Assembly (NCBI GenBank): GCA_964403585.1
Contig: CAYOFQ010000001.1
Coordinates: 12,456 to 76,455, forward strand
From: an uncultured Gammaproteobacteria bacterium
Lineage (GTDB): Bacteria > Patescibacteriota > Microgenomatia > JALYQM01
DNA: 64,000 nucleotides
Direction of reading: 5' to 3'
Below the pieces are notes generated by a model that was not told the DNA's origin, ran no database searches, and saw nothing but the letters and a program-made list of their open reading frames with translations. Shown in pieces: positions 4,901 to 55,900 of this stretch. The position numbers were made by a program, and so were the translations under genes. The stretch's first letter is position 1, and every line of letters begins with the position of its first letter.

Positions 4901-7900
4901 TAGCTCTGGTGAAATAACCCAAAACTTAATCGAATTGCAAATGCAATTGGATTCACAAGCCATCAAGAAATCCGACGAAGAAAAAATTCTGGCATTACAA
5001 AGAGCATATATTGGATCCAGAGAAGACCAGCGTCGACCCGCAACATCAGGTGAACTAAATGTACTGAAGCGTGGTTTAGAGGAAACCAACTGGTACGACC
5101 GCGGAAATTTCTTAGCCTCAACCACCGATAACGCCACCAGATCAGTTGAAAAACATGTCGGTGATATATTAGAAAAACTTGCTGAGCAGGACCCGTCAAT
5201 AAGATCCAGATTAGCCGGTACAGCATTCAGTGCTATTAAACGCGATACTGCCAGCGCGGTAATGCAGGATTTGGCCGCCACTACGAGTAAATCTGAAGTA
5301 CAGTTTTCTATTCTTTCTACACTAAAAACTACACTTGAGGATAAAGTTACCGAACTTACCGGAAAAAAGGTTAAACTTGATCCGGGATCCACTGCCGGTG
5401 ATCTCTTAGCCAATTCGGCGTCAAAACTCGCCGGAGATAAAAAAGTCCAGGCAGCCGCCGCCATGCAATCAATCATGCCTATCGTCCCCCATATGACCGA
5501 CGAAGTTGAAGAAGGCGATTTATATGGACACCGTGAAGCCATGCGCGAAATGATGGCTCAGGATTACGAAAAAGGCGTTCGTGACATTCAAAAAAATCTT
5601 GATCGGGAGATTAAAAGAGGATTACGAAAATACCGAAAAGCAGCCAGTACTCCCCCACCGGATTCTTCATCAGGAGTAATCATCACCGAAAGAGGAGAAA
5701 AAGCCTCGCAAAGTTTCGACCGAGCAGCAGCATTAATCGTTAAAGAAATAAATCCTACTTTAAACCTCGATATAAGCACTCAATACGAACTTCGTGAACA
5801 AATTGAGCTTTCATTAGTTGGCATGGCTTCAGCAGGAAAATCTCGCGCCGAGATGCGCGCCAAAGTACAAGAATTAGTAACTAAATACGCTGGCAACGTC
5901 TCAGACGATGTCCTAACTGCAGCATTAAAACACGCGGATTTTATGGCCGAAGGCCAAACCAGAGCAGGTCGACGGTTATTTAAAAAAGCCATGGCTGGTC
6001 CGGAAAACCCGCAATCATATGGCAATGATCTCCGCGATCAGGCCATCCAGGGAAGTTTTGACCAGACCGCCAATCGTCTCGCCAGCAAAGCCGCTAAAAC
6101 ATTTTCCATGGATGCTTATGATGAAGGCGAACTAAGACGACAAATATCTGACATGCTTGTCACCATGGCCCGTCAGGGTAAAACACAAGCAGAAATGCAA
6201 AGCAGCATCTCAAACTTGATCCAGCAGACCATTAGCACCACTGAAGGCGGTAAATTCCTCGCCGAAAGAGAACGGGAAAGCAAAATTGTCACCGGTAATC
6301 AGGCAATCTATCTTAGCCGAAAACAAAAGAGAGATCAGTTCTATCGTGAAGATGCCTCCATGTCAATTGCATCCCTTCTCGAAGCTGTACGTTCTGCAAA
6401 TCCAAACATCACTGATGACCAACTCAATGCCATTGCTGAAAACACCATTACCAACACGATGGGTGGACTTAAAATCGTCCCTATTCAAGCCAAAAAAGAT
6501 AATGGCGACCTGATGTTTGATAAAGATGGTCAGCCGGTTTATGTGACCAACGGGAAAGATGCTGATGGCAATGACCTGATTGAATATAAACTGGAAGAAG
6601 GCAGTAGTGTTTTCGGTGTCAACGGTATCATGGGCCTCTCAAAAACCCAGCTCCGTATGATGGCGAAAATGTCCCCTGCCGAACAACTGGAATACCTTTC
6701 CAAATTTGATGAGCTGCGACGACAGCAAATATTTAGCTCTTTATCCATCTCCTTAAAACACGAATTAATGCAATTTGGAGTGTGGACTCCTCAAATGGAG
6801 AAAAAACTCAACAGTCTACGCTTGAAAGATTTTTACGACCGCGACCAACAAGAAAGTTATATTAATAGCGCCATCGCCGATGCTCAAAACAAAGTTGGTC
6901 GACCATTAACCAATTCGGAAATTGCCCAAATCCGAGCAGAAATGAGCGCTAAATTAAATAAGAAGATGTCCGTTCAGGATGCTATCGCCTTCCACATGGA
7001 GCGCGGGTATTCCCTTGACCACTTTGTTAAACAATTCCGCGAAGATACGTTAAGGAAAATGCGCAACAACCGCGAAGATGAAGCATCCTTCTATGACTTA
7101 TCTCGAGCAAGAAACTCATTTAGTAATAATATCAACACCATTGAAGCATTACTCGATCCAAGATTTGCCCAGAAATATGCCCGCCGCAAAGTAAGAGCGT
7201 ATAAACGGGATGCTCAAAAATTCATACTTGGCGCCGTTGGAATCGATAAAGACTCTTCCTGGACTGCCTGGTTTGGCAGTATGGTAAACGGCACCTTTCA
7301 GCAAAAAATGATTGGCCATGAAAAAAATCTCGCCGCACTCTCTAAAAAATACAAAATGGATGTGGCTCAAATTGCCAAAACTGGAATCAAACCGAAAAAT
7401 ATATCGTTATTTAAGAGTTTAGAATTAGACCGAGCTATTCGCTCCCAACGCGGCTTAGACGCCATCAAAAAAGCCCGCGAAGCCAACCCGCGACTCGCAT
7501 TCCTCTTCGATAAACGCGCGCAACGCATGCAAAGTAATAAATATGAATTTTCTGCCGAATTGTTCGAAACCCTCCTCCACGGTTCAGCAGGAATTAAAGC
7601 GCTTCCTGGAGTTGTCTCCAGTAGATTAATGAATGCAACCATCAACAAAATACTTACCGAGGGCAAAGGTTTCCGTAACTTTTTTGTCTACGATCGCAAA
7701 AGCAGGCAAATTCTCTTTACTCCCTATGAAGAACTAAAAATGAAGCGCGATGAAGCAGTGAAACAGCTCAAGGAAGCAGCGTGGAATTCACGGCCAATGA
7801 TGTATGCGCGCGAACAGGGAGATAAAGTTAAAGAATACGCTAAAGATCAATTTAAGAAATATGTTTGGGATTCAAAGCCGGTCAAAGCAGTTAGAAATCG

Positions 7901-15836: not shown

Positions 15837-16601
15837 ATGTGGAATTTACTTGATGTACCGTATCAGATAATCTTTCAAAGCCTTATATATTTATATTCCG
15901 TTCTCTTTGAGAATTTTGGATTGGCAATTATTGCACTGACAGTCCTTATCCGGGCCCTGCTTCTCCCTTTCACCCTTCCTGCTACCCGAACACAGAAAAA
16001 AATGGTGGAGCTTAAACCAAAACTTGACGAGTTAAAAGCCCAGCATGGGCATGACAAAAGAAAATTATCCGAAGAACAACTAAAACTCTACCAGGAGCAC
16101 GGAGTAAATCCGCTTGGCGGATGCTTACCTCAAATAGTACAAATTGTCCTTCTCATCGTCTTGTATCAGGTATTCATCACTTTCCTTGACCCAACCAAAG
16201 GCCACAAGCCCCCTATGATTAACGGCAATCCGGTACATACTGCTTTTCTCTGGTGGGATCTGGCTAAAAAAGACCAGTTCTATGTGCTTCCTGTTCTGGC
16301 CGGCATTACCCAATTCATTATGTCCAAGATGATGCTTCCGAATACCAAACTGGAAATCAAAAAGAACGACTCCAAAGCTGAGAAAAAGGAAAAAGAAGAC
16401 ATTGCCGATGTCATGCAGGAAGTCCAGGGTCAGATGGTCTATATGATGCCGGTAATGACTGTCTTTTTCAGCTTAAACTTCCCTTCCGGGTTGGCGTTGT
16501 ACTGGATCGTCGGCAACATTTGTTCTATCGTCCAGCAATATTTCATCACCGGCTGGGGTAGCTTGCCTGACCTCTTAAAATGGTTTAAAAACTCCAAATA
16601 A
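15837..16601 (+). CDS. yidC: Membrane protein insertase YidC (short form)
   Basis: LLLPFTL...Q.KM..L.P....LK....D...L..E...LY.EHGVNPLGGCLP.L.Q matches the YidC/Oxa1 core, followed by several TM helices. Confidence 0.85.
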   Translation: MWNLLDVPYQIIFQSLIYLYSVLFENFGLAIIALTVLIRALLLPFTLPATRTQKKMVELKPKLDELKAQHGHDKRKLSEEQLKLYQEHGVNPLGGCLPQIVQIVLLIVLYQVFITFLDPTKGHKPPMINGNPVHTAFLWWDLAKKDQFYVLPVLAGITQFIMSKMMLPNTKLEIKKNDSKAEKKEKEDIADVMQEVQGQMVYMMPVMTVFFSLNFPSGLALYWIVGNICSIVQQYFITGWGSLPDLLKWFKNSK

Positions 16602-36792: not shown

Positions 36793-38403
36793 ATGAGGAA
36801 AAAAATACTTACCTTAAGTATAATTACAAGCATTATAATGCTACCGGTCATAATGCTCTACACCCAAACCCAAGCTGCCAACCCCAATGAAATTCTCCAA
36901 ACCAGCTGGAATAACTACAAAAACGCTATGATTGACCCTGACGGCGCCGTCAGACGACGTGATCAGGGGAATGACGTGGTATCCGAAGGCATTGCCTACA
37001 CTATGTTACGGGCCGTCTGGATCAACGACCAGGAAACCTTTGATAAAGTCTATGGTTTCGCTGAGAAAAAAATGTCGCGTCTCAATAACAGCAGCCTGGG
37101 AGATAATCTTTTGGCCTGGCTGTATCAGGGTAATAACGTAACCGACTGGGGAGCCGCTTCAGATGCCGACGAAGACTATGCCTTGGCGCTGGCTTTTGCT
37201 GAAAAGAAGTGGGGAAAGCCAAAATCAGGCAATCTTCCGGATTATCGGGAGAAATCGATCGCCGTCCAAAAGGACATCTTACGCCTCGAAACAGGCTGGG
37301 CAGGAGATAAAGTCTATCTGCAGCCGGGCACCTGGTATGCCTTTAAAGCACCAATTCCGGTTAACCCTTCATATTTAGCACCTGGACACTATAAAATTTT
37401 CAACCAGATGTCACCGGACCCGCGCTGGGAAAAACTTATTGAATCATCCTATGATATCCTCTGGAAGTCCTCAGGATCAATTGATGGTCAGATAGGGATT
37501 GGGTTACCCGCCGATTGGGTCAATGTTCAGGCGAATGGTAGCATCACTAAGGCTCCTAATTTGGGCATCGACTACAAGTACGACGCTATTCGAACCAGCA
37601 TGCGCGTAGCAATGGACTACGCCTGGTTTAACGATATGCGGGCCAAAAACTATCTAACTTTGTCCGGCGCTCGCAATTTCTTATTAAATACAATCAATAA
37701 CAAAGGCAAAATCGGTACCGAATACCAGCACGACGGAACACCAATTGGTGGCGAATATACCAACGCTGCTTCCTATGGAACTAATATCGGCTGGTTCATG
37801 CCGGAAAACTCAGACAAAGTCCAGCAGTTCTTAGGAATAATGCAGGACGAGTACCATAAAAACGGCAATAAATTTATGGCCGGTACCAATTATTATATGG
37901 AAAATCTTGCCTGGATGGGCTACGCTTTGGGAACCGGAAATATGCCCAATATCTACGGCGGCCAAACCAACGCTGGTGGCAATCCAACTATCATGGCAGC
38001 TATCGCCACACCCGAGAGAAACACCCCTAACCCGACAATTGTCGCAACCGTTACCCCCTCAGTTACACCGTCACCGTCTGTCCAACCGACAGCTACACCG
38101 GGCTCACAGCAACCAAGCACCGGGCAATGGCTGCAAATCTCTAATCCCAATGACAATCAGAATCTTAACGGCAAATTTACCATGAAGATTAAGAATAACT
38201 TACCAAACAATCAGGGTACCTGGTGGTCGGTAGATAGCGGAGGATGGGTTGGTATGCAAAACGTCGGCAATAATGAATGGGCCGGCGAAATAGATATTTC
38301 CGGATGGAATTGGAAGTCGGACCAAAACTACACCTTACACGGCTGGACCAAAGATCAGAACGGCAATCAGATCCATACGCAGGTAAATATACACAAACAA
38401 TAG
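36793..38403 (+). CDS. Secreted glycoside hydrolase family 8 enzyme with Pro/Thr linker and C-terminal ~110-aa domain (possible carbohydrate-binding module)
   Basis: ASDADEDYALALAFAEKKWGK fits the GH8 signature (A-[ST]-D-[AG]-D-x2-[IM]-A-x-[SA]-[LIVM]-x-A-x3-[FW]) with one conservative deviation. Signal peptide, a PT-rich linker TPNPTIVATVTPSVTPSPSVQPTATP, then a Trp/Asn-rich terminal domain. Confidence 0.7.
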   Translation: MRKKILTLSIITSIIMLPVIMLYTQTQAANPNEILQTSWNNYKNAMIDPDGAVRRRDQGNDVVSEGIAYTMLRAVWINDQETFDKVYGFAEKKMSRLNNSSLGDNLLAWLYQGNNVTDWGAASDADEDYALALAFAEKKWGKPKSGNLPDYREKSIAVQKDILRLETGWAGDKVYLQPGTWYAFKAPIPVNPSYLAPGHYKIFNQMSPDPRWEKLIESSYDILWKSSGSIDGQIGIGLPADWVNVQANGSITKAPNLGIDYKYDAIRTSMRVAMDYAWFNDMRAKNYLTLSGARNFLLNTINNKGKIGTEYQHDGTPIGGEYTNAASYGTNIGWFMPENSDKVQQFLGIMQDEYHKNGNKFMAGTNYYMENLAWMGYALGTGNMPNIYGGQTNAGGNPTIMAAIATPERNTPNPTIVATVTPSVTPSPSVQPTATPGSQQPSTGQWLQISNPNDNQNLNGKFTMKIKNNLPNNQGTWWSVDSGGWVGMQNVGNNEWAGEIDISGWNWKSDQNYTLHGWTKDQNGNQIHTQVNIHKQ

Positions 38404-38452
38404 TCTCGGGAAAAACAATGAGGAAGACAGGTGCTAAAACCACCTGTCTTTT

Positions 38453-39976
38453 TTATTTAACATCATATCGCAAGATATACGACCGCATCTCCAGACCGGG
38501 GGAAAAACGTTGAGTGGTATAAATCTCATAGTGCTCGTCCATATACTTGCGAATCTTACTCTCATAACCCTGATCATACGAAAGCACGACAAACACCCGC
38601 ATATACTGCTTTTTATATTCTTCTATCTGTTTTGCCAGGGCCTCATCCGAATAGGGAGGAATAGCCCCGCCTTTTTCATCATAACGGTTCCAATAGGGAA
38701 TAGTGTCAATTCGTGCCTGACCATTATATCCGTATTCAATCGGATATATTGTGAATGGAGCCGATACCGCAATAATATCCTTGGCGGTAGTATGTTGGCT
38801 AAGGTAGGCATCTACGCCGGCATAATCTTCCTTAACCGGAGTCGCAGCAGAAATATTCTGGTACCCTGAAAGGCCCAAGAGAATCAGCATAAAGCCGGTA
38901 ACTAAATATGTTGCAATACGTTTGGAGTATGAAAGCATCGACCACGACAAAATAAAGAACAGGGAAGGAGTAACGAGAATCAAATAGCGGGACAAAAATA
39001 TCGGCCGAATAAACGACACAAAGAACACTAAAATAATCGGCAGTACGGTGACAAATCCGAAATAGGCGATTCCTACCACCGGCAATCGTTTCCGTTTGGT
39101 AAAAAGCATAAACAGCATAATTAAAGATAACGGCCATAACGCGATAATAAAAGCCTGTACTGCCTGAGTCTGGAAACCGAACAGAAATTGTACAATTATC
39201 TGGAAAATATTAAAGCTGGTTGGTCGTGGAATAAGCGGCGAGGCATTACTTGCCGTACCGAGACTATAAACATAGGTAATCCAGGGCGTAAGGAATAAAA
39301 AGGATTCCAAAGCCAGGCCTAACCATTTCAGTGGAAATCCAATATACTTTCGCACCAGCTGCCAGAACGAAACCTCGCCAAATGCCGGGTCACGATATAC
39401 AGCAGATAACATACGGCCAAGTATAAACACACCTTGTGTAATTAATAAGAACAGGAAAAAATAGTGAGTATAAAGACCTAAAATAGCACTAACTAGATAG
39501 CCGAATTTTGAGGTCTTGCCTTCACTGCGAACCAGACGCAAAAAGTATAAATGATTCAAGCTGGTAACAAGCGTAAACAGAGTATACATGCGGGCTTCAT
39601 TGCTATACCACATCACAAACGGCGATAACGTAAACAGCGCCACAGTAAGATACGCTACACGCTTTGAACTCGACTCCCGGGCAAAGCGATACAATACCGG
39701 TAACGTAAGAATAAAAAACAGAAACGACAACGCCCGCACAACCATAATGTCGGTACCGAATAACTGCATCCAGAAATGAAGCAGAAGCGCATACAACGGA
39801 ACGTGCACATCCTGAGCAATATAACTCAGTAATGCCGGAATAGATTTCGTCGAGGCCCAGATCGACTGCGATTCATCCAACCGGATCGACTGCGAATAAA
39901 GAGTAATCAACGAAAGCGTGCACGCTGCGAGTATTAAAACCACAAAGCTGATATCTAATAATTTCTCTCTCTTCAT
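38453..39976 (-). CDS. Polytopic membrane glycosyltransferase of the GT39/GT83 (PMT/ArnT-like, GT-C fold) type
   Basis: 507 aa with more than 10 TM helices and DE-containing first loop (LDESQSIWAS) typical of GT-C enzymes. The family assignment is from topology only. Confidence 0.5.
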   Translation of the reverse strand: MKREKLLDISFVVLILAACTLSLITLYSQSIRLDESQSIWASTKSIPALLSYIAQDVHVPLYALLLHFWMQLFGTDIMVVRALSFLFFILTLPVLYRFARESSSKRVAYLTVALFTLSPFVMWYSNEARMYTLFTLVTSLNHLYFLRLVRSEGKTSKFGYLVSAILGLYTHYFFLFLLITQGVFILGRMLSAVYRDPAFGEVSFWQLVRKYIGFPLKWLGLALESFLFLTPWITYVYSLGTASNASPLIPRPTSFNIFQIIVQFLFGFQTQAVQAFIIALWPLSLIMLFMLFTKRKRLPVVGIAYFGFVTVLPIILVFFVSFIRPIFLSRYLILVTPSLFFILSWSMLSYSKRIATYLVTGFMLILLGLSGYQNISAATPVKEDYAGVDAYLSQHTTAKDIIAVSAPFTIYPIEYGYNGQARIDTIPYWNRYDEKGGAIPPYSDEALAKQIEEYKKQYMRVFVVLSYDQGYESKIRKYMDEHYEIYTTQRFSPGLEMRSYILRYDVK

Positions 39977-39977
39977 A

Positions 39978-41543
39978 CTATTTCTCCGAAGCTGCTAACT
40001 CAGATTTTCCGTATCCAAAACTAAATAAACGGGCGAACAGACCTTTCCAGTCATATGCTGCCTGAATAAAGGGAATAAACATAATTACGTTAAATAAGCC
40101 CCACGTAATGTTGGTTATCACCGACGGAGTAAGCCCTTCCCGGCGGATACCAATTACTGCACAGGCGACAATGATAACTACATACATTAGGTGCGGATAA
40201 GCGAGGAATAAAAAGTTACCTTCCTGAGCTTGTTTTGGCGTAACGGCAAATCCCATCTTCTGTTTTAACAATATGGATTTGATTGCCTGCAATTGTAAAG
40301 GCCAGGAAGACATTGAGAATGACAGTCCACGGAATGTTACAGAATTACCTGAGGCAATGTACAACGTATAAAGGTTCAGGAACATAAAAGGCAGGAAGAA
40401 GAATGCAAAGGAAGTGGTAGTCCCTTCCACCGGCTGGATACCGGTAGCCAGAGAAATTATCGGGATCAGTGCATCCACCACAATAATAACACCGTTAAAG
40501 TAATACAGCGCCGAGGAAAGGTACTGCATCTTCTGGCCCCAGGACATATTTTTCTTGAAGAGCGGATTGAATCCGAAGAGAACCTCTAAGGAACCACGAG
40601 CCCAGCGAAGTTGCTGCTTACAGTAGGAAAGCAAGTCTTCAGGCGCGAAACCCTCAGCCAGGACTTCCGGTACATAGTAGGATTTCCATCCGTTCTGGTG
40701 AATAAAGAACGATGTTAAGAAATCTTCGGCAATATTGTCTTCACACATACCACCAACTTGTTCCAGGGCAGTTCTCCGGATCGCCACATTAGTGCCACAG
40801 ATAAATGCTGCATTACTTTTTTCTTTACCGGCCATAATTGGACCGAAGAATAATTCCTGTTGTTCCCATGCTCCACCGGCAACCTGATTCACATCATGAT
40901 TGAGGTAATACTGGGGTGTCTGTACAAATCCCACCTGCTTGTCTTTGAAATACGGTACAACTTTTTGCAAAAAGTCTTCGTGTGGAGCCATATCCGCATC
41001 GAATATAACGATAATGGAGCCCTGAGTCTGTTTAAGTGTGTTATTAATATTTCCGGCTTTCGCCCCACCTGGAGTTTTACGGGTGATACAAAAGACACCA
41101 ATCTCTTCAGCCATCCGCTCGTATTCCTGCCAGTTTGGTTTCTTGGCAACATAACCGTCATTAAGGATATAGACTTTATGATTTGAATACTTCATCCGCT
41201 TTGCAGCCAATGCCGTACTACGGACAATCTCTACCGGTTCACCGGCACAGGGGATATAGATATCTACAGAAGGTTGTCTACCCCGTAATGCAAACTCACG
41301 GGCTGCTTGCTCTCTCTGCTGGCCGGTAAGCGTATATTTAGAATCAGCTGGCCAAACAGTGAACCAGAAGCAAAATGCCATTATGATGTGATAAACCTCA
41401 CCGATTACCAGCAACCAGTAGAAAACCGGATGTCCCACATGACTTAAGTCCATCCACCACGAAAAATAAATAATCGCCATAACTACATTGAAGATAATTA
41501 ACGTTCTATTTACTCTTCCGGTTGGTATTCGTGCTTTGTTCAT
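39978..41543 (-). CDS. Processive family-2 beta-glycosyltransferase (cellulose-synthase/BcsA-like catalytic subunit, no PilZ domain)
   Basis: Conserved D,D,D residues, FICGTNVAIRRTAL (matching FFCGS..RR.AL), TEDFLTSFFIHQNGWKS (TED motif) and QQLRWARG (QxxRW) are all present and in the correct order. Flanking TM helices. Confidence 0.8.
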   Translation of the reverse strand: MNKARIPTGRVNRTLIIFNVVMAIIYFSWWMDLSHVGHPVFYWLLVIGEVYHIIMAFCFWFTVWPADSKYTLTGQQREQAAREFALRGRQPSVDIYIPCAGEPVEIVRSTALAAKRMKYSNHKVYILNDGYVAKKPNWQEYERMAEEIGVFCITRKTPGGAKAGNINNTLKQTQGSIIVIFDADMAPHEDFLQKVVPYFKDKQVGFVQTPQYYLNHDVNQVAGGAWEQQELFFGPIMAGKEKSNAAFICGTNVAIRRTALEQVGGMCEDNIAEDFLTSFFIHQNGWKSYYVPEVLAEGFAPEDLLSYCKQQLRWARGSLEVLFGFNPLFKKNMSWGQKMQYLSSALYYFNGVIIVVDALIPIISLATGIQPVEGTTTSFAFFFLPFMFLNLYTLYIASGNSVTFRGLSFSMSSWPLQLQAIKSILLKQKMGFAVTPKQAQEGNFLFLAYPHLMYVVIIVACAVIGIRREGLTPSVITNITWGLFNVIMFIPFIQAAYDWKGLFARLFSFGYGKSELAASEK

Positions 41544-41557
41544 ACATTAGTCCTTTC

Positions 41558-42733
41558 TTAGTACGCCACCAATCGCTCATTGTATAAAGCTGCACCAAAC
41601 CACAGCCAGTTTTGCTCGTAGTAGGGTAGGGTGTCTTTAAATTGTGTTTTGTCGGTAGAATAAAGATCTAAAATCTTCTCCTGGTAAACCTTATCGGCAG
41701 ATTGTGGATCAATGATCTTAAAATAACCAATTGCTGTGGCATACATAGTCGGATTCTCATAATCTTCCAGAACCGTGCCGTCGTGGGAATAAGAACTGGC
41801 AAGTTTATATCCGGACTTCTTATACAGTTGGGAAAATATTTGTAGCGAAGACAAATACTCATAAGCGCGCGCATCACGGTTCCACTGGTAATCTAAAGCA
41901 ATTCTCCAAGGGATACGCATTGCATCATACGAGTAATTTGTTTTAAGGTTTGGTAGCGGAGCAGCTTTAAGCGCGCCGTTTGATTTTTCGATTGCTACCC
42001 AGTCCGGGGGAAGTCCGATACTCTTTGCCGTATCAAGTGGTTGCTTGGAGCTTTCATTAAGTAATTCATAAGCCGGACCGATTAAACTGTTCCAGTCATG
42101 CTCCGTATCTACTGTCGCGAAAATTCTCCAGGCATACGGTGCAAAGTACGAAGGATTAACCACAACCGATTCTGAAGACTGAGCCCAGTTCCCGGCAGTA
42201 AGATATCGTTTATTCTGCACAACAGCAGTTTCTTTCTCCCACATGGCACCGAGAATCTGTTTTGCTTGAGCAAGATATTCTTCATTACTCCAGCGTCGTC
42301 CGGCGAGTATCAACGCCAAGGCGATATCCGAATCTGCATCACTTGCTGAATTTATGCCGCCATCCGGTAAGAAACCGTATTTGTTCTCACCTAACTTACC
42401 CCACTTCCATCCGAACAGCCAATCGTCCTTATGCTGCATGTTATTTTTAGTGAACACCCATACTTTATCGAAAGTAGCACGGTCATCACTCCACACCGCG
42501 CGGAGTAATGCATAACTTTGGCCTTCTGATGTAGTAATGTTATCCTGGGTATCATCGAGAATACGGCCATCTTCGGATAAGAAATTTACTTTGTATTTTT
42601 CCCAGGAAGACTGGAGCAACGTGTATGGGGAAAATGTCCGTGTGTAGGCACTATATCGGCTGTTTGAGTAGAGCACAAAACCAATAACTCCAATACCAAG
42701 CAATAATAGTAGTAAGCCAATATATTTTTTCAT
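41558..42733 (-). CDS. Secreted glycoside hydrolase family 8 endoglucanase (BcsZ-like)
   Basis: ASDADSDIALALILAGRRW is an exact-class match to the GH8 signature. N-terminal signal/TM. Immediately upstream of, and 14 nt from, the BcsA-like gene. Confidence 0.8.
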   Translation of the reverse strand: MKKYIGLLLLLLGIGVIGFVLYSNSRYSAYTRTFSPYTLLQSSWEKYKVNFLSEDGRILDDTQDNITTSEGQSYALLRAVWSDDRATFDKVWVFTKNNMQHKDDWLFGWKWGKLGENKYGFLPDGGINSASDADSDIALALILAGRRWSNEEYLAQAKQILGAMWEKETAVVQNKRYLTAGNWAQSSESVVVNPSYFAPYAWRIFATVDTEHDWNSLIGPAYELLNESSKQPLDTAKSIGLPPDWVAIEKSNGALKAAPLPNLKTNYSYDAMRIPWRIALDYQWNRDARAYEYLSSLQIFSQLYKKSGYKLASSYSHDGTVLEDYENPTMYATAIGYFKIIDPQSADKVYQEKILDLYSTDKTQFKDTLPYYEQNWLWFGAALYNERLVAY

Positions 42734-42736
42734 AAG

Positions 42737-43432
42737 CTAAAATAATTCGGTAATAAGTTGGGATGCGCCGCGAATACGTGTAGAAACGTTCTGTAATGGT
42801 CTAGGATACATCATAAGTAATCCAATTATAGAAAACGTAAAACCTGAACTTAGAAGAATTTTAGTACTCGACTGAGATAAGCCATGCGGATGGTAATAAT
42901 CACGGTCCTTATCCTGAACCAGGAACGAAAGTGGCGAGTCGAGAAGTGTGTTGTATGCATTATCTCCAATATCCTGGATGATTGGCTTGGATTTTTTAGT
43001 TTCAGTATTTAAGATTCTTTCAATCGTGACCTTCGGTGAAGCCGTGGGAGTGGGCGACGGACTCGTAGAAGGACTCACCGAAGGAGCTGGTGTCGAAGTC
43101 GCGGGAGTAACACCGCCTACCTGAGGAGCAGAACTTGGCGTTGCTGATGCCACAGGACTGGCTACTACCGAAGCCGACGGTGCAACGGTACCAGCCGGAG
43201 TCACACTTGGAATAGGTGAGGGGCTTGTAACAGGAGTAACTGTTGGTTGAACGGAAGGCGCGGCACTTGCAGTCGGTGCGACGGTAGGTGCTGGTGAAGC
43301 AGTTGGCTCAACAGTCGCTACTGGCGTCGGGCTTCCCGGCAATTGAACAGTTATATCCACTGCATAAGATCGAGTGCTTGAAACACCGAAGAGAACAACC
43401 AGAATTGGAACGAAGAGTACTTTCTTTACCAT
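42737..43432 (-). CDS. Secreted Pro/Thr/Ser/Ala/Val-rich low-complexity protein with C-terminal hydrophobic segment
   Basis: Signal peptide, about 140 aa of (P/T/S/A/V) repeats, then a globular tail with TM-like FTFSIIGLLMMY. Confidence 0.5.
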   Translation of the reverse strand: MVKKVLFVPILVVLFGVSSTRSYAVDITVQLPGSPTPVATVEPTASPAPTVAPTASAAPSVQPTVTPVTSPSPIPSVTPAGTVAPSASVVASPVASATPSSAPQVGGVTPATSTPAPSVSPSTSPSPTPTASPKVTIERILNTETKKSKPIIQDIGDNAYNTLLDSPLSFLVQDKDRDYYHPHGLSQSSTKILLSSGFTFSIIGLLMMYPRPLQNVSTRIRGASQLITELF

Positions 43433-43653: not shown

Positions 43654-44874
43654 TTATGGATACCAATCCTTGATTCGTGTTCTGAGAATATCTTCGGTCA
43701 TTGGGTAGGGGGCAATTCCTAAACTCTGGAAACCAACATTCAGCAACTCCGCAGCGGCCATGTCCCGCTTTAATATACCTTCTGCACCGAGAACGACTGC
43801 CACAACTTGCTTACCGTTCCGTGTTGCCGAAGCCACCGTAGTATGCCCGGCATCACCGGTATTACCAATTTTTACACCATTAGCACCGGGATACGTATTT
43901 ATAAGCATATTCCAGTTCGGTAAGCGAATCGCCTGGTGGCGGGTATTTGCAGCAAGGTACCCGTCTTTGCGTGCGACGATACCTGCAAGTTCCGGATAAT
44001 GGGTCATAGCGTAGTGCGCAATAACCGCCAGATCTTCACAATTAGAATAGTGCTCCGGTCCATCATAACCTTGCGGATTCTGAAAATGTGTATTCTTCAG
44101 ACCCAGGAACTTTGCCTTCTCATTCATTGCCGCGACAAATAAATCGGTATTACCACCGTATTTTTTACCAATCTCTTCGGCGAGAACCGCCATTGCATCA
44201 TTTCCGGATGTTAATAACCCGCCTTGTATGAGTTCACGGGTGGTGAGTATATCTCCGGCTCGTACACCAATTACTGTTGGTTCAACCTGAGTAGCCGGCG
44301 TCTCCACAGTAAACTCCTCATCCAGACTAGCCAGGTCCATTGCAACCATCGACGTCATGATTTTAGTAGTCGAAGCGATCGGCATCCGCTGGGAAGCATT
44401 CTGTGCATAGTAAACTTCTCCTGTTTCAAAATTGATCGATAAAGCCGCTTTGGTAGTTAGGGCATCTTTCAACAAACCGGGTCCGCCACCAACGGCTTGC
44501 TGAGGACGCGTCTCTGAAACTTTCCAGGGGTCCGGTGAAGTTTTTAAGAACGGAATGACTTGACTAAGCAGGCGCTGAGAAGGGGAAACGGTGGCGGCTA
44601 TTGCTTGCGCCGAGTCGGTCGAAGTGCTCTCACTAATCGAGGCGTTGAGAAGCTCAGGTTGACGGAGTGTCGAAAGACCGACACCAACTCCAAGTGCAAT
44701 CACACCGAAGCCAAAAATATAGGATGAAAATAATGAGCGTTTAGGTTTTTGAATGTATTCTGCGCGTGTAATTTTGGGGGGACGATAAGAATAATATGTC
44801 CGCATCAGATAGCTCCTTGCATGAAATGTACAAAAACTATAACAACGTATGCTATAGTAATCAATTTCAAACAA
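43654..44874 (-). CDS. dacA: D-alanyl-D-alanine carboxypeptidase (peptidase S11, PBP5/6-like)
   Basis: IASTTKIMT (SxxK), LLTSGNDAM (SxN) and KTG-like VKIGNTGDAG. The start is probably the internal Met (MRTYYS, ~44805) rather than the extended track start. Confidence 0.75.
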   Translation of the reverse strand: MFEIDYYSIRCYSFCTFHARSYLMRTYYSYRPPKITRAEYIQKPKRSLFSSYIFGFGVIALGVGVGLSTLRQPELLNASISESTSTDSAQAIAATVSPSQRLLSQVIPFLKTSPDPWKVSETRPQQAVGGGPGLLKDALTTKAALSINFETGEVYYAQNASQRMPIASTTKIMTSMVAMDLASLDEEFTVETPATQVEPTVIGVRAGDILTTRELIQGGLLTSGNDAMAVLAEEIGKKYGGNTDLFVAAMNEKAKFLGLKNTHFQNPQGYDGPEHYSNCEDLAVIAHYAMTHYPELAGIVARKDGYLAANTRHQAIRLPNWNMLINTYPGANGVKIGNTGDAGHTTVASATRNGKQVVAVVLGAEGILKRDMAAAELLNVGFQSLGIAPYPMTEDILRTRIKDWYP

Positions 44875-44997
44875 AGCAATAAATATATGTTATATTGCAA
44901 ATATAACAATCGAGCGTGTAGCTGGCTAAAATAGCTGAGTAAGAAAACTTTTCACACAAACTACAAAAAAATGCTGATTGATGTATAATTGTATCTT

Positions 44998-45840
44998 ATG
45001 AAACGTGAAGTCATAAAAGAACAGTTTGTACCACTTGCGCTTACCTGGGTAATTTTGGGAGCCCTCATCGGACTGTATTATTTGGAAATTAAATTCCTCA
45101 ACCTCTTTACTAAAGATCAAATCTCTACAGGTATAAATTTCGCTGATGTCACTATTGGACTGACCATTTATCTAAAAACGTCCATCGACTTTGCCATCTT
45201 TATGGGCAACTTAATGAAGTCCAATCCCGGCTGGAAAAATCGCATCGCCATTGAAGGGGGTACCGCGTTAGGTAATGCTCTTGGAACCTTTGCCATTTTA
45301 CTAATGTGGGACTTCTTCAAAGAAATTGCCTGGCTGCTTTTCATAATGATCTTCATAGCGTCTCTGGTGCTATTCAGATTAGCTAAAGATGGAATCGAAC
45401 ACGCCAAAGCCGAAGAAGAGAACAACTCCGATACCTTTAAGAAATTAGTGAGACATACCGAAAAGTTTGTCAGCTATATTAATAAGTTTATCGACCCCAT
45501 TTTGGACAAACTGATGCCCCATGCCAGTATGAAGACAAAACGCAATCTTACCTGGACCAGTCTCTTCATGTTTTCATTCTCAGTACCGTTCATCTTAGGA
45601 CTGGATGATTTCGCAGGCTATGTCCCGTTGTTTAATATTATTAATGTCTTTGGCTTCGGCATCGGTGTTATGCTTGGCCACACTATTTTAAACATTCTGC
45701 TTTTCTTATCGCCATCCCGAACTATCGCCTTAGTGAAAAACCCGCTTATTTCCTATTTGGGAAGTCTGGCTTTTATTGCTTTGGCTATCTGGGGTCTGTA
45801 CGAAGCTTTTCATACCTTAATCGAAGCATACCTTCATTAA
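44998..45840 (+). CDS. Hypothetical integral membrane protein (~7 TM)
   Basis: The ORF track starts at TTG 44989. ATG 44998 (MKREVIKEQF) was chosen instead. Hydrophobic throughout. Confidence 0.5.
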   Translation: MKREVIKEQFVPLALTWVILGALIGLYYLEIKFLNLFTKDQISTGINFADVTIGLTIYLKTSIDFAIFMGNLMKSNPGWKNRIAIEGGTALGNALGTFAILLMWDFFKEIAWLLFIMIFIASLVLFRLAKDGIEHAKAEEENNSDTFKKLVRHTEKFVSYINKFIDPILDKLMPHASMKTKRNLTWTSLFMFSFSVPFILGLDDFAGYVPLFNIINVFGFGIGVMLGHTILNILLFLSPSRTIALVKNPLISYLGSLAFIALAIWGLYEAFHTLIEAYLH

Positions 45841-45945
45841 GTGCGCGCTAAGATATCTCTTGACAGCGCTGTTTCCATGGTCCAAACTAATCGCATCACA
45901 CCTCTGTAACACACTAATTCTAACAACACACAACGCAGAAAGGAG

Positions 45946-46590
45946 GTGATACTTACGTACAGACTCATCCTTAGTTTCCTTACCATCGCGATAGTTTTTA
46001 CTGCCGCGACCGGTACTACCTACGCCTATTTCACGAGTTCGCAATCGTTTGCTGGAAATTTAATCTCTACAGGCAGCTTGAATTTTCAGGGGACCATGAC
46101 CGATATAACCGGGCTCCAGGAGTATTCGATTATTGAAAATAATTTTGCCCCCGGAATGACTGCCACCCGTTGTATCTTTATTCACAATTCAGGAACGTTA
46201 CCGGGACGGTTTAAAATATATCGCGGCACCGATTCGGGTGATACAACCACGCTTGGCCCAACACTCCAGGTGACGGCAACGTTATCACCTAACTCGGGAG
46301 CATGTTCTTCGCTAACGCCTCCGGGCTTTGCCAATTTAAACAGATATACGGTCACTCCCGTTACTTTGACTATTGGAATGACTGACCAGTCGTTTAAGTC
46401 GCTATCCGCTACACCAGTAAAAATTCCTAAAACAGCTGCTACCATACAGCCGGGACAATTTGCGGTGTATCGGCTGGAGATAACCTTACCGAGTACTACC
46501 ACCGCCGCAGTTAGTTCCGCCAGCTATACAGCCAATTTAGAAGTCTTCGGCATGCAAGCCGAAGGCTCTGGTACTGACTCGGATTGGTAA
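45946..46590 (+). CDS. TasA/camelysin-family secreted protein with SipW-cognate signal peptide
   Basis: N-terminus LILSFLTIAIVFTAATGTTYAYFTSSQSFAGNLISTGSLNF matches the TasA-type G-T-x-A-x-F-[ST/ND]...F-x-SG-L-L signal/cleavage region. Only a GTG start is in frame and it overlaps the AGGAGG Shine-Dalgarno sequence, so the exact start is uncertain. Confidence 0.65.
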   Translation: MILTYRLILSFLTIAIVFTAATGTTYAYFTSSQSFAGNLISTGSLNFQGTMTDITGLQEYSIIENNFAPGMTATRCIFIHNSGTLPGRFKIYRGTDSGDTTTLGPTLQVTATLSPNSGACSSLTPPGFANLNRYTVTPVTLTIGMTDQSFKSLSATPVKIPKTAATIQPGQFAVYRLEITLPSTTTAAVSSASYTANLEVFGMQAEGSGTDSDW

Positions 46591-46679
46591 AGAAAGAAAC
46601 AGCGTAGAGCAGCCTACGCTGATACTTATATGAAACAATTTTTTTTTCGATATATAAATGTAGTTCTGTAACATTCTTA

Positions 46680-47156
46680 ATGATCGCGGCATTGTTGGGC
46701 ACACTTTCCGTTGCCCGAAAAATAAATCCGGATCTGCCGCTTAAAGTACTTTCAGTTGTCTCGGGTTCCATGGAGCCTGCCATCCCGGTCGGAAGCGGAG
46801 TAGTGGTACTTTCTCAACCGTCATACTTCGACAATGACATCATTACGTTTAAATTCTCTGGTAATTTAGTAACACATCGAATAATTTTCGCCGGAAATTA
46901 TTTTTTAACGAAAGGGGATGCCAATCGATCTATCGATCCTGAGACAGTCGAGAAAGAGCAAATAGTCGGCAAGGTAATTCTACACATTCCGTATCTGGGG
47001 TATTTACAGGAGTCGACTAAGCATTTATCCGGCCTGGTTCTATTTATCATTATTCCATCATGCCTGATCATCATTCACGAAATAATTATTAGTATCAAGC
47101 TAATTAAAAGTTATCGGTTCCGTTTCCTGTCTCGCCGCAACTCCCGAAGTTCCTGA
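46680..47156 (+). CDS. sipW: Type I signal peptidase, archaeal/eukaryal-type (S26B; SipW-like)
   Basis: VVSGSMEP (Ser box), GDIITFK, LVTHRII (His box) and LTKGDANRSIDP (box D). Confidence 0.8.
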   Translation: MIAALLGTLSVARKINPDLPLKVLSVVSGSMEPAIPVGSGVVVLSQPSYFDNDIITFKFSGNLVTHRIIFAGNYFLTKGDANRSIDPETVEKEQIVGKVILHIPYLGYLQESTKHLSGLVLFIIIPSCLIIIHEIIISIKLIKSYRFRFLSRRNSRSS

Positions 47157-49390
47157 TCCATATCCCGCTGCATTTCCGCCAAGCGCTGACTAAGATCATT
47201 GGTCTGATTTATCGGTACGAAAGAGGGAGTCGCGAAAGGACGATTAGTCGAGTCACCGGCAACATTCGGCTGAAGTACACTTGGATCAGTCAGACCCATT
47301 CCTGCCTGTAAGTCCTGAACCTGCTTTCGTACCGAATTACAATTGGATTCGACACTTCCGGCGATATAAACTTCTCGCGCCGAATTAAATTCATAAAAAA
47401 GTTTTTCTTGACCATTATCATTAACCCGTTTCTCCACCAGGGAACACATTTCTCCCTCGATCACTCCTGGTGGACGGGCAAATTGCTCAAAGCCCGTATC
47501 TTTAAGAGTTCCTTCCATAATATCTTTCCAGATCGGAGCCGCTCCTAAAGAGCCCGCAACACTATCCATCTCCGTGTTGTCGTTATTCCCAACCCACACC
47601 CCAACCACCAGCGACGGAGTATACCCAATCGTCCAGGCGTCCCTGTATTCATCGGTAGTACCTGTTTTGACAGCAGCCGGTCTGCCGCTCGGCAACTTTA
47701 GTGAAGTCGATCCAAACACCTCTTGTCGTGCCGTATTATCCGACAAAATATTAGTTGTAATATAAACGGCTCCTTCATTTGCTACACGCTGTGGTTCATG
47801 TTCATGTATATATATCGTTTGCCCGTATTTATCGACAATTTTTTCAATGGCATATGCCTGGTTATAAATTCCGGTGTTGGCCAACGTCGCATATCCTGTG
47901 GTCATCTCCAGTGGTGTAACTTCACCACCACCAAGTACCAGACTTAATCCGTAATTCGACGGTTCACCTAAACTTTTTACACCCAGTGATTTAGCGTAAT
48001 TAAGTCCGTCTTCAACTCCAACCATCTTCATCGTTTGCACAGCCGGCAAGTTTAGAGAATTTGCTAACGCTCGCCGCGTCGTAACTTTTCCGCGGAACTT
48101 TCCGTCATAATTCTTCGGCTTATAATTACCACCAAAGTCAGTCGGGGTATCATCCAGTTGCGTTGCTGCAGTAATAAGTTTCCGTTCGATAGCTCGTGTA
48201 TAAATATAAGGCTTAAAAGAGGAACCCGGCTGTTGATTGGATAACGTAATATTCACCTTCCCATCGATAGCGTCATTATCCCAATCCGCCGAACCGACCA
48301 TTGCCATGATTGCACCGTTCTTTGGATTAAGCACCACAGCTGCACCATTGGTGACTTTATTTTTAGCTAAATTACGCACCTGTTTTGTCACTTCTTCTTG
48401 AGATAAATCCTGCACCCGCGAATCAAGAGTAGTAAACACACGGTAACCGAAACGCTCCAGAGAGTCTTCACCAAATTGATTAAGTATTCGTTGACGGATA
48501 TATAAAGAGAAGTGGGGATATTTACCTTGAACTATTTTTCGTTCTACGAAAGTTAATTTTTCTTTTGTTGCTTCTTCCATGTCCGTAGCAGTAATAAATT
48601 TCTCATCATGCATTCGTTGAAGAACAAATAATTGGCGCTTAATCGCCAGATCGGTATTGGTAGAGAGAGTGGAGGGAGCATTAGGTAAAGCTGCTAAAAA
48701 CGCTGCTTGAGCCAGAGATACTTTTTCAATCGGCACACCAAAGTACGCAAGCGATGCCTCACCAATCCCATACGCACCTCGACCATAATAGCTTGAGTTA
48801 AGGTACATCTCCAAAACCTGGTCCTTGCTATACCGTTTATCAACACCTACTGCTAACACCAGCTCCTTCAACTTTCGTGTATATGATTTTGAACGGTCAT
48901 CAAGCAGAGCATTTTTTACCAACTGTTGCGTAATGGTTGAACCTCCATAGGCGTAGGCATTACTCTTCTGGAAATTCAGCGCAATCGAGCGGAATATACC
49001 GCCCCACGAAAAACCCTGGTGATCATAAAACTGGGCGTCTTCAACAGCCAGTGTGGCGTATTTCGCTACCCGCGGCACTGCGGTAATGGAGACATTCCCG
49101 ACCTCATGCGCGCCATCACTCTCGTAAATAATCTGGTTATTTTTATCGTAAATTATTAATCCCCGGAAATGGCGATTCAGAAGGCGATCCTTAGAAACCA
49201 GATCTTCTGCGTAAACTACATATGTTTGGAAGGCAAAAAGTAAACCGAAGGCCAGGAAAATAAGGCCAAAAAAGAAAAAGAGTGCAATATACACGCCACG
49301 CCGGCGCTTACTTTCAATTCGCTCCAGTAAGGTTACCGGTTCTTTATGAATGTGCAAAAAAGGAAAGCGGCGCGACACATGAATTTGCAT
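47111..49390 (-). CDS. Bifunctional class A penicillin-binding protein (GT51 transglycosylase + transpeptidase)
   Basis: EDAQFYDHQGFSWGG and RGAYG-like (GT51 motifs), SNQQPGSSFKP (SxxK), SLN, KTGTTDEY (KTG), with an N-terminal TM anchor. The 3' end overlaps sipW convergently by 46 nt. Confidence 0.85.
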   Translation of the reverse strand: MQIHVSRRFPFLHIHKEPVTLLERIESKRRRGVYIALFFFFGLIFLAFGLLFAFQTYVVYAEDLVSKDRLLNRHFRGLIIYDKNNQIIYESDGAHEVGNVSITAVPRVAKYATLAVEDAQFYDHQGFSWGGIFRSIALNFQKSNAYAYGGSTITQQLVKNALLDDRSKSYTRKLKELVLAVGVDKRYSKDQVLEMYLNSSYYGRGAYGIGEASLAYFGVPIEKVSLAQAAFLAALPNAPSTLSTNTDLAIKRQLFVLQRMHDEKFITATDMEEATKEKLTFVERKIVQGKYPHFSLYIRQRILNQFGEDSLERFGYRVFTTLDSRVQDLSQEEVTKQVRNLAKNKVTNGAAVVLNPKNGAIMAMVGSADWDNDAIDGKVNITLSNQQPGSSFKPYIYTRAIERKLITAATQLDDTPTDFGGNYKPKNYDGKFRGKVTTRRALANSLNLPAVQTMKMVGVEDGLNYAKSLGVKSLGEPSNYGLSLVLGGGEVTPLEMTTGYATLANTGIYNQAYAIEKIVDKYGQTIYIHEHEPQRVANEGAVYITTNILSDNTARQEVFGSTSLKLPSGRPAAVKTGTTDEYRDAWTIGYTPSLVVGVWVGNNDNTEMDSVAGSLGAAPIWKDIMEGTLKDTGFEQFARPPGVIEGEMCSLVEKRVNDNGQEKLFYEFNSAREVYIAGSVESNCNSVRKQVQDLQAGMGLTDPSVLQPNVAGDSTNRPFATPSFVPINQTNDLSQRLAEMQRDMDQELRELRRDRKRNR

Positions 49391-53448: not shown

Positions 53449-54192
53449 TTATTCAGCCAATCTGGTAAAGACAAGCAGTCGTTTTGTGGTAAAGCCTGGA
53501 GGTTCACAGGTAACGAGTGTCATTGTTTTTCCATTGTGGTAGCGGAGAACACGGGTGTCTTTTGGATCGACAACTTCCATACCTTCAACAACATAAGTAT
53601 ACGTAGTGTCTCCCCAGTGAAGATTAACCGTATCCGTCGCATTAAGCGTGTCTAAAGTAGTAAAAATACTTAAATAATTCTTCGGATTATAAAAAGTAGG
53701 CAAAATACTATGACCGTAAATAATTGCATTGCCGTCAGTACCCGGATAAGCACTACCTTTATAATGGGCCAGCGACTTTAGCAACACGGGTTTATAAATA
53801 TCTTCATTGTTCGACAAAACATCAGTGGTAACGACAGCATCCTTAATCCCAAGTTTATTAATGCTGAGACCAAAAGTAGGGAAGATCACATCCGAGTCGC
53901 CTGCAGCATTTACAGAACCCGGATCGGTTACTTCATTTTTAGAGGTATTTGGATTCTGTGCAACAAACGCTGATGCCGGTACCGTATCAAGAACACGGAC
54001 AAGGCCTGGCTTATTCGCTATTTGGTTCTCTTTAAGTCCCCACAAATAGTAGTAGCCACCAACGTAACTGAAAAGCGAAAGACCAACAAATAAAAAGCTG
54101 GCACTAACCGCTTTACGACCCTTTTCGCGCATTACTTGATGTTGGATGAAAAGCGCCTCGGTATTGGCTTTTACGTACGAATAAGGACGCAT
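53449..54192 (-). CDS. Sortase-family transpeptidase
   Basis: N-terminal TM anchor, catalytic His region IIYGHSILPT, the TLVTCEPP (TLxTC) active-site Cys motif and a downstream Arg (TKRLLV). Confidence 0.75.
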   Translation of the reverse strand: MRPYSYVKANTEALFIQHQVMREKGRKAVSASFLFVGLSLFSYVGGYYYLWGLKENQIANKPGLVRVLDTVPASAFVAQNPNTSKNEVTDPGSVNAAGDSDVIFPTFGLSINKLGIKDAVVTTDVLSNNEDIYKPVLLKSLAHYKGSAYPGTDGNAIIYGHSILPTFYNPKNYLSIFTTLDTLNATDTVNLHWGDTTYTYVVEGMEVVDPKDTRVLRYHNGKTMTLVTCEPPGFTTKRLLVFTRLAE

Positions 54193-55471: not shown

Positions 55472-55900
55472 ATGGCTACAATCGCAGAAGCAAGTCTTGA
55501 TCTTCATACATATATAGTAAAGCCTGCTGGCGAGGATCAAAATCGGGAAGTTCAAAATAGCCGCTCTCGACAGGAAGACAAGGCTCAACGACGAAGAATG
55601 AGAAGCGCAGTAGAGCTAACCTTCTCTCATATATATAGTGCTGTCGCACCACATTTTAAACCGGAAAAAGTTGAACCGGTGCCGACCAACGCAATGATTT
55701 GTGCAGCCGAATATGTAACTGCCATCCGGGCACTACGAGCCATTCAAATATTTCACAGCCAGTATCGGACTGCAGCCGAAAGGGAGGCAGGAATGCCCAA
55801 TTTTACAGGGATCCTCAGTTACAGCACCCGCCCCGATTCACCGGGTAATTCCAACATGGAAGCGGAGGTCTTAGGCCTTGACTTATCCCGCATGAAATGA
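55472..55900 (+). CDS. Hypothetical protein
   Basis: 142-aa ORF with no recognisable motif. Confidence 0.35.
   Translation: MATIAEASLDLHTYIVKPAGEDQNREVQNSRSRQEDKAQRRRMRSAVELTFSHIYSAVAPHFKPEKVEPVPTNAMICAAEYVTAIRALRAIQIFHSQYRTAAEREAGMPNFTGILSYSTRPDSPGNSNMEAEVLGLDLSRMK

Follow-up and report, generated by a model that had tools for sequence, protein, structure and literature searches.

A divergent TasA-type gene paired with a SipW-like signal peptidase gene, a probable surface-fibre cassette in a Patescibacteria-related bacterium

The 64,000 bp stretch analysed here (contig CAYOFQ010000001.1, positions 12,456–76,455; hereafter the window) contains two adjacent genes on the forward strand. The first (45946-46590, +) encodes a secreted protein of the TasA superfamily (Peptidase_M73-like) with a precursor of 214 residues, called below the fibre protein for short. 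The second encodes a signal peptidase I of the endoplasmic reticulum (ER)/archaeal type (S26B, SipW-like), which is 158 residues long as read (46680-47156, +) and would extend over 46630-47156 if its reading frame were restored. The locus is a divergent member of the known TasA/SipW-type system. We consider it probable that the two genes constitute a minimal cassette for TasA-type matrix or surface fibres in a bacterium related to the Candidate Phyla Radiation (CPR, or Patescibacteria).

The TasA-superfamily protein and the adjacent signal peptidase

In the list of open reading frames (ORFs), the fibre gene spans 45946-46590 (+) with a GTG start and codes for 214 residues that contain AATGTTYAYFTSSQSFAGNLISTGSLNF, the TasA-type N-terminus to which the first-pass annotation of this DNA had drawn attention. 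A word-indexed search of 5.8 billion proteins returned only three close relatives, one of which was the NCBI call of the same gene. A profile built from the three sequences and used in an exhaustive HMMER search returned 367 relatives at E<=1e-3, many of them full-length at approximately 200-225 residues; 34 full-length relatives drawn from these were aligned, and all family-level counts given below refer to this alignment. The family PF12389 (Peptidase_M73) was matched by 25 of the 34 (best E 4.3e-19) and the SipW-cognate signal family TIGR04088 by 22 (best E 3e-12). The TasA equivalog NF046066 was matched by half of them (17/34), and the BsaA family TIGR04090 by 19, the window protein itself giving no match to TIGR04090 at E<=0.1. 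The profile of the 34 sequences matched the solved TasA chains 8aur (2.4e-6) and 5of1 (3.3e-6) over an alignment that spanned the GTL...NLxPGD...NxG block and the C-terminal QG...ATQ strand, and it matched the archaeal AbpX weakly (E=0.046). On sequence grounds, membership in the TasA/Peptidase_M73 group holds at the superfamily level, through transitive homology.

The predicted structure pointed in the same direction. Two AlphaFold2 models were obtained, with predicted local distance difference test (pLDDT) values of 86.2 and 90.1, and in Foldseek searches of the PDB the TasA fibre 8aur_A ranked first (E=3e-5 and 1.3e-6, probability 1.00). It was the sole PDB match with E<=1e-3, other donor-strand filament subunits being found further down the list. 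The models thus show a jelly-roll/beta-sandwich fold like that of solved TasA. The predicted mature protein has 187 residues, a mass of 19.7 kDa, an isoelectric point (pI) of 5.2, 27% Ser+Thr and 5.9% Asp+Glu, and its residues Cys 76 and Cys 120 are invariant within the close subfamily. The sequence of the fibre protein contains no HExxH motif, a single His and no N-x-S/T sequon; a metalloprotease reading was rejected for lack of the HExxH motif. A sortase gene is present at 53449-54192 (-), and its synteny is kept in the related loci L002 and L004. As the fibre protein has no LPXTG motif, it is not an obvious sortase substrate, and this possibility was discarded.

The first 27 residues (45946-46026, +) are predicted to form a SipW-type signal peptide cleaved at TYA|YF. 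An examination of the cleavage site had been proposed in the first-pass annotation, and the alignment with TasA, whose signal peptide has 27 residues and whose site is TWA|AF, placed the cut after Ala27, which makes A27|Y28 the likely position. Ala27 (P1) and Phe29 (P2') are conserved in at least 90% of the 34 relatives, and the single hydrophobic segment of the signal peptide passed the KD19 threshold (2.0). In TasA, an aromatic residue at P2 together with Phe at P2' makes the site a poor substrate of LepB, hence the need for SipW (Musik et al., PMC10269814). The site of the fibre protein carries the same features. The mature N-terminus YFTSSQSFAGNLISTGSLNF (46027-46086, +) would comprise a candidate donor strand and the strand that follows it, and is the counterpart of TasA residues 28-38, which in TasA fibres are the donor strand and are inserted into the next subunit (PMC9674648). 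Within it, YFTSSQSFAGNLI corresponds to the TasA donor strand itself. The pLDDT of the mature model fell below 50 there (mature residues 1-13) and nowhere else, as expected of a strand that has no intramolecular partner. The motif A|xF..(S/T)....N...G.L is conserved, N38 and G43 being nearly invariant among the 34 relatives.

The second gene had been described as an archaeal/eukaryal-type signal peptidase with SGSMEP, THR and TKGDAN boxes, and this description proved accurate. The 158-residue ORF (46680-47156, +) scored 75.4 bits against TIGR02228 (cut-off 51.85) and 29.1 against Pfam S24 (cut-off 23.3). A profile of 21 homologues matched human SEC11C (2.5e-19) and SEC11A (3.3e-18), LepB-type structures appearing at E>=0.013. 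The catalytic residues, the alignment of which had been set as a check on the first-pass annotation, were all retained: Ser30 (46767-46769) in SGSMEP, His66 (46875-46877) in THR, and Asp80 (46917-46919) and Asp86 in TKGDAN...D are invariant in 21 aligned sequences, and their counterparts in SEC11 are the boxes SGSMEP, HRV and TKGDNN. A C-terminal transmembrane segment lies at approximately 47028-47090. Judged from these alignments, the enzyme is an ER-type (S26B) Ser/His signal peptidase. The cut-off of the Bacillus SipW equivalog NF046067 was missed (75.4 vs 190 bits), and the peptidase is accordingly best regarded as SipW-like in class and context and not as an orthologue of Bacillus SipW. 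The designation of the locus as a SipW-TasA cassette therefore stood for class, fold and pairing; it did not for SipW equivalence (75 vs 190 bits), and no TapA-like partner accompanied the pair. Among the scanned window ORFs, no LepB-type signal peptidase was seen.

The pairing of the two genes is conserved. A peptidase with SGSMxP, THR and TKGDAN boxes was located immediately 3' of the fibre gene in the related loci L001, L002, L004, L007, L008/L009 and L010, and in the window as in all related loci examined the peptidase start lay 40-90 nt 3' of the fibre gene. Synteny of the pair extends to 4-6 other genomes, in which the coding DNA is only ~64-72% identical. Both ORFs are real and not chance frames, as indicated by the support from hidden Markov models (HMMs) and by synteny maintained despite this divergence; the fibre ORF scored 201.7 bits against an HMM built from the 34 relatives.

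Genes for 23S and 5S rRNA, dnaA and dnaN mark the window as bacterial, and the contig from which it is taken has a length of 1.57 Mb. Its GroEL gave 78-92% matches to bacterial metagenome-assembled genomes, and the nearest named relatives, at ~65-69%, were all Patescibacteria/CPR (Daviesbacteria, Gottesmanbacteria, the Microgenomates group and CPR3). This one marker suggests that the organism belongs to a deep lineage of the CPR with affinity to Microgenomates.

Proposed assembly, frame break and alternative explanations

We propose that the 214-residue precursor would be exported by Sec and cut by the adjacent peptidase at TYA|YF. The released protein of ~19.7 kDa, a single jelly-roll/beta-sandwich domain, would then expose a flexible N-terminal strand, YFTSSQSFAGNLI..., which, by analogy with TasA, would complement the next subunit as a donor strand inserted into its sheet. 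An extracellular filament would thus be built without ATP and without a chaperone. The fibres would probably share with a beta-glucan a role at the cell surface, in the matrix or in attachment; this joint role is suggested by the conserved neighbourhood, which includes GT2, two GH8, PMT_2, DacA-like and PBP1A genes. The biofilm or adhesion fibre system put forward in the first-pass annotation is consistent with this model, in which fibre formation and adhesion are predictions drawn from homology. In the strain at hand, an anchored full-length peptidase would be made only when RNA polymerase or the ribosome slips on a run of nine T residues (T9), and such slippage would give a low or a switchable level of the enzyme.

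The T9 run marks a break in the peptidase reading frame. The ancestral start of the peptidase is the ATG at 46630-46632 (+), which opens the sequence ATG AAA CAA (MKQ) and aligns with ATG AAA CAG, with which the gene opens in the orthologues; the sequence P0005 begins with MKQHLQ. This ATG lies 50 nt upstream of the catalytic ORF and is out of frame with it, a stop being encountered after 13 codons. The ORF starting at 46680, as initially reported, does exist; it is an N-terminally truncated reading of a gene whose ancestral start is ATG 46630. The T9 homopolymer (46639-46647, +) is the longest in the 64 kb and forms a U_UUU_UUU slippery run in the frame of ATG 46630. RNA polymerase is prone to slip on A/T runs of at least nine residues, and ribosomes can shift by -1 on the heptamer U_UUU_UUU. 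With a single T added, or after a -1 shift, the frame reads MKQFFFSIYKCSSVTFLMIAALLGTLSVARK..., the beginning of a 175-residue enzyme whose N-terminal segment passes the transmembrane threshold: the KD19 maximum of the N-terminal part was 1.92 for this form and 2.19 for the orthologue, compared to 1.17 for the 158-residue form (threshold 1.6). The T9 run was identical in three assemblies, the window and two Logan assemblies from different Sequence Read Archive (SRA) runs. Both matched the window at 100% identity along 1.7-2.5 kb, indicating that they represent the same strain and that the frame break is reproducible within one strain. A metagenome scan found no T7-T11 variants of the frame-break region, no stimulatory structure was present at the usual distance from the slippery run, and neither a Shine-Dalgarno (SD) sequence nor a promoter was found before ATG 46680. 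Since the downstream frame is intact and conserved, a low-level or switchable production of the full-length peptidase appears more likely than a dead gene.

Several observations weigh against a functional fibre cassette. Taken alone, the sequence of the fibre protein stayed below the PF12389 gathering score (16.9 vs 22.5 bits, E=0.0058, residues 10-85 only) and below the TIGR04088 cut-off (13.6 vs 19 bits, E=0.057; residues 12-45 aligned to model positions 2-34 of 34). The check by these two HMMs that accompanied the first-pass annotation was therefore negative for the single sequence, and it was positive at the level of the relatives (25/34 and 22/34, respectively), with the fold in agreement. 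The Foldseek TM-score to TasA was only 0.38-0.43, with a high root-mean-square deviation. Regex and HMM scans of six-frame ORFs detected no TapA-like nucleator or anchor in the 64 kb and no TasA paralogue (CalY), so that the search for additional TasA-like paralogues suggested at the outset came back empty for the 64-kb window. The 158-residue peptidase has only 'MIAALLGTLSVA' in place of the N-terminal signal-anchor found in all 20 homologues, which start with a basic stretch followed by a full hydrophobic anchor; a peptidase devoid of this anchor may be inactive in this strain. The link with the cellulose-type genes is confined to close relatives, the neighbourhood of the more distant L008 being different. 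Finally, it is doubtful at which codon translation of the fibre gene starts: GTG 45946, the sole canonical in-frame start, lies inside the SD, and ACG 45955 (codon 4) is invariant and stands where the wider family has its initiator Met. The hydrophobic core of the signal peptide and the cleavage site are the same under either start.

A cassette that is falling into decay in this strain is possible, if rather unlikely in our estimate. The break at T9 would then inactivate the peptidase, the precursor would remain unprocessed or be handled by another peptidase, and no fibre would be made. The separation of the conserved start codon from the catalytic domain agrees with such a decay, as do the loss of the N-terminal transmembrane segment present in all 20 homologues (KD19 of 1.17 for a threshold of 1.6) and the lack of an SD or promoter at ATG 46680. 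It is at odds with the 158 codons that remain free of stops downstream of the break, with the invariance of all catalytic residues, and with the intact state of the fibre gene and of its regulatory blocks. Moreover, the break falls exactly in the longest homopolymer of the window, a classic slippage-prone run, and a slip of a single nucleotide restores a well-formed enzyme of 175 residues. A different view of the peptidase, which we hold to be very unlikely, is that an organism with a reduced genome uses it as its general signal peptidase and that it stands beside the fibre gene by chance. CPR genomes are reduced, and the failure to see a LepB-type enzyme among the scanned window ORFs would fit such a role. 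However, the peptidase follows the fibre gene in all 6 related contexts, some of which have a different wider neighbourhood, and a housekeeping enzyme is unlikely to tolerate a frame break. The substrate also bears the aromatic P2 and Phe P2' signature that is tied to SipW dependence (PMC10269814).

The protein might also adopt the TasA fold without polymerising; it could then be, for instance, an adhesin, a protease like camelysin, or a monomer at the cell surface or in the cell wall. PF12389 was historically named a metalloprotease family, the window holds no TapA-like nucleator, and the TM-scores to the TasA fibre are modest. On the other hand, no metalloprotease site is evident in a protein with no HExxH and one His, the N-terminal strand motif is kept, and this motif is disordered in the monomer model, as would suit a donor strand. 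In addition, all structurally characterised members of the TasA superfamily form donor-strand filaments (PMC9674648; PMC9245690; bioRxiv 10.64898/2026.01.04.697558), and for some of them self-assembly needs no chaperone (CanA, cited in PMC9245690). A non-polymerising protein thus seems quite unlikely to us, and a two-gene fibre cassette is the reading that we retain.

Comparison with known filament systems

The closest known systems are those of Bacillus subtilis (tapA-sipW-tasA) and Bacillus cereus (sipW-tasA-calY). They have in common with the window a signal peptide of 27 residues with a small P1, an aromatic P2 and Phe at P2', the jelly-roll fold, and a co-encoded ER-type Ser/His peptidase; TasA and the window protein also share the blocks G-x-L, P-G-D-like, N-x-G and ...Q-G...A-T-Q. 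The differences are substantial. The window protein is ~15% identical to TasA, has a shorter mature form (187 vs 234 residues) and does not have the TasA insertions. Its gene precedes that of the peptidase and has neither a TapA nor a CalY partner. The peptidase is frame-broken and is not a SipW equivalog, the host is CPR-like and not a Firmicute, and the neighbourhood is made up of cellulose-type and peptidoglycan genes. The BsaA protein of Clostridium perfringens (TIGR04090), a SipW-dependent biofilm matrix protein, likewise shares secretion by a SipW-type signal; its family is the one matched by 19/34 relatives and not by the window protein itself. Intermolecular isopeptide bonds of the BsaA type and a connection to type IV pili were not seen, no search aimed at either having been made.

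The archaeal filaments of the TasA superfamily (AbpA bundling pili, AbpX, Tafi, Sulfolobus 0406 threads and CanA cannulae) also consist of single-domain beta-sandwich subunits joined by N-terminal donor-strand complementation, often with a co-located signal peptidase I gene. Such co-location is common in the TasA superfamily (bioRxiv 10.64898/2026.01.04.697558). AbpA, the thread subunit and CanA were among the weaker Foldseek matches of the window protein, far below TasA. The AbpX clade has a pI of ~4 and ~15% Asp/Glu, whereas the window protein, with its pI of 5.2, 5.9% Asp+Glu and no N-glycosylation sequons, falls outside this acidic calcium-dependent clade (bioRxiv 10.64898/2026.01.04.697558). 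Signal peptidases associated with AbpX have 10 transmembrane helices and the window peptidase has 2.

Among CPR filaments, the Pam pili of Saccharimonadia and Microgenomatia (bioRxiv 10.64898/2026.03.03.709456) resemble the proposed fibres by their donor-strand exchange. Their pilins have two domains, a 9-strand sandwich and a truncated Ig-like C-terminal domain; they are served by membrane-anchored PapD-like chaperones and are encoded beside ATP synthase genes. They have no SipW-type peptidase, and TasA goes unmentioned in their description (bioRxiv 10.64898/2026.03.03.709456). Identity with Pam pili was rejected, the architecture being unrelated.

TasA homologues in CPR are already known and are not new, since Patescibacteria are among the phyla with PF12389 homologues (Wang et al., PMC9245690); there they are mentioned in one line of a survey, and in the literature we found no dedicated study of them. 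CPR/Patescibacteria are mostly uncultured and often epibiotic, and surface filaments are central to the contact with their hosts. The filaments characterised so far in these bacteria are type IV pili and, very recently, Pam pili. The locus offers a compact example, with one subunit gene, one peptidase gene and no TapA, of what may be nucleator-free TasA donor-strand fibres in CPR, and its T9 frame break is a candidate for slippage-dependent expression.

The peptidases of L002 (261 residues) and L008 (319 residues) carry C-terminal extensions (L002 9170-9466; L008 5220-5663) with an extra hydrophobic or transmembrane segment and an N/S/T/Q-rich tail. The window peptidase has no such extension. 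The segment PTYSYFTHTRSFLVNIKT, which comes after the extra hydrophobic segment in the L002 extension, resembles TTYAFFTSTQTFAGNVIST of the cognate fibre protein: it scored 7.0-9.6 bits against the signal/donor-strand motif, a score reached by 8/5000 and 1/2000 shuffles (p ~0.002), and it was the best non-self ORF match (E=0.042). The L008 extension contains no such motif, TIGR04088 matches neither extension, and a comparison of the two revealed no similarity (E ~1-2). These data hint weakly at a TapA-like primer fused to the L002 peptidase. A broader scenario can be drawn, which we consider quite doubtful as a whole. In it, TasA-type donor-strand fibres would be a second class of CPR surface filament besides type IV and Pam pili and would operate with a cellulose-like glucan in attachment or in forming a matrix. 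The peptidase would depend on T9 slippage, either phase-variable or as a programmed frameshift, an anti-SD/extended-SD switch and a hairpin would control the expression and the ratio of the two products, and the L002 peptidase may carry the fused primer or anchor.

Conserved non-coding elements and neighbouring genes

Three non-coding blocks are conserved across the orthologous loci while the coding DNA is ~64-72% identical. Upstream of them lies the hexamer TTGACA (45860-45865, +), invariant in 4 orthologous loci whose flanking sequences diverge; it is a candidate -35 box of the fibre-gene promoter, and a consensus promoter scan called no full promoter at this position. The first of the three blocks, the leader box ACACCTCTG (45898-45906, +), is invariant in all orthologues and is a candidate anti-SD. 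Its CACCUCU can pair with the GGAGGUG of the SD/start region in a 7-bp consensus stem. The resulting hairpin was set aside as lacking statistical support (folding z-score -0.73, and no covariation as there is no variation), and we mention the anti-SD function as a hypothesis only.

The second block occupies the start region of the fibre gene and is an invariant 14-mer, AGAAAGGAGGTGAT (45937-45950, +), an extended SD that contains the GTG start. The canonical 3' tail of 16S rRNA is AUCACCUCCUUUCU, of which this 14-mer is a perfect 14-nt complement. No SD match elsewhere in the window is as strong. The spacing to GTG 45946 is zero, this start codon lying inside the SD itself; the alternative ACG 45955 is 8 nt after GGAGG, an ideal distance.

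The third block is an intergenic hairpin, CAGCGTAG-AGCAGC-CTACGCTG (46600-46621, +), situated between the stop codon of the fibre gene and the peptidase start. Its 20-nt core is identical and at the same position in the orthologous loci, and its sequence is unique in the window. The sole substitution, A to G in L002, keeps a U.G pair on the + strand only, and the centroid fold has an energy of -12.8 kcal/mol. A possible role of the hairpin is to fix the ratio of subunit to peptidase or to protect the mRNA upstream of it. As a terminator it is unconvincing: the + strand has no U-tract, and the T-rich tail of a terminator-like call on the - strand is present in this strain and not in the orthologues. 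An Rfam E-value search of 45780-46760, which covers the leader box and the hairpin, returned no family. A metagenome scan for the hairpin found a single unrelated contig (L011) with neither a fibre nor a peptidase gene, a chance match.

The fibre gene has been poorly served by automatic annotation. The NCBI gene call starts it at Met51, which leaves 164 residues and removes the signal peptide, and Logan calls an 87-residue antisense ORF in its place. With the gene thus missed or truncated, and its protein below threshold in Pfam and TIGRFAM, the locus exemplifies a systematic annotation failure, and surveys probably undercount the family.

The envelope neighbours named in the first-pass annotation were correctly assigned. 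They are a PBP1A-family enzyme (47111-49390, -; TIGR02074, 503.8 bits), an S11 DacA-like carboxypeptidase (43654-44874, -) and, just upstream of the fibre gene, a polytopic membrane protein (44989-45840, +) with no family match. Directly upstream of the DacA-like gene, a cluster (36793-43432) that is syntenic in 4 related genomes contains a cellulose-synthase-like GT2 (39978-41543; 521 residues) that has no PilZ domain and stays below the TIGR03030 cut-off (279 bits). The cluster also includes two GH8 endoglucanases (41558-42733 and 36793-38403), a glycosyltransferase of the PMT_2 family and a secreted protein rich in Pro and Thr. The block kept in close relatives comprises PMT_2, GT2, GH8, the Pro/Thr-rich protein, DacA, in some cases the membrane protein, the fibre gene, the peptidase, in some cases a MOSC gene, and PBP1A. 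In the window, the 3' end of the peptidase ORF overlaps that of the convergent PBP1A gene by 46 nt (47111-47156). Relatives have a MOSC gene or a 13-nt gap between the two, indicating that the basic C-terminal tail of the window peptidase is lineage-specific.

A TATAAT-like box was observed 7-12 nt before the start codon, with no SD, at many gene starts, for example at 15837, 30191, 33761, 51387 and 54706 and before the PBP1A gene (47111-49390, -). This arrangement suggests that mRNAs with a very short leader or none at all are frequent in this genome. The segment 56258-60038 carries tRNA-Ala, 23S and 5S rRNA genes; there is no 16S rRNA gene upstream, where a protein-coding ORF ends at 55900, and the rRNA operon appears to be unlinked. 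Near the left end of the window, an AdoCbl-II riboswitch match (1726-1796, -; 41.4 bits for a gathering score of 36.5) adjoins a giant ORF of 2880 residues (1902-10544, +). DUF11 was the sole Pfam match of this ORF, which probably encodes a huge surface protein.

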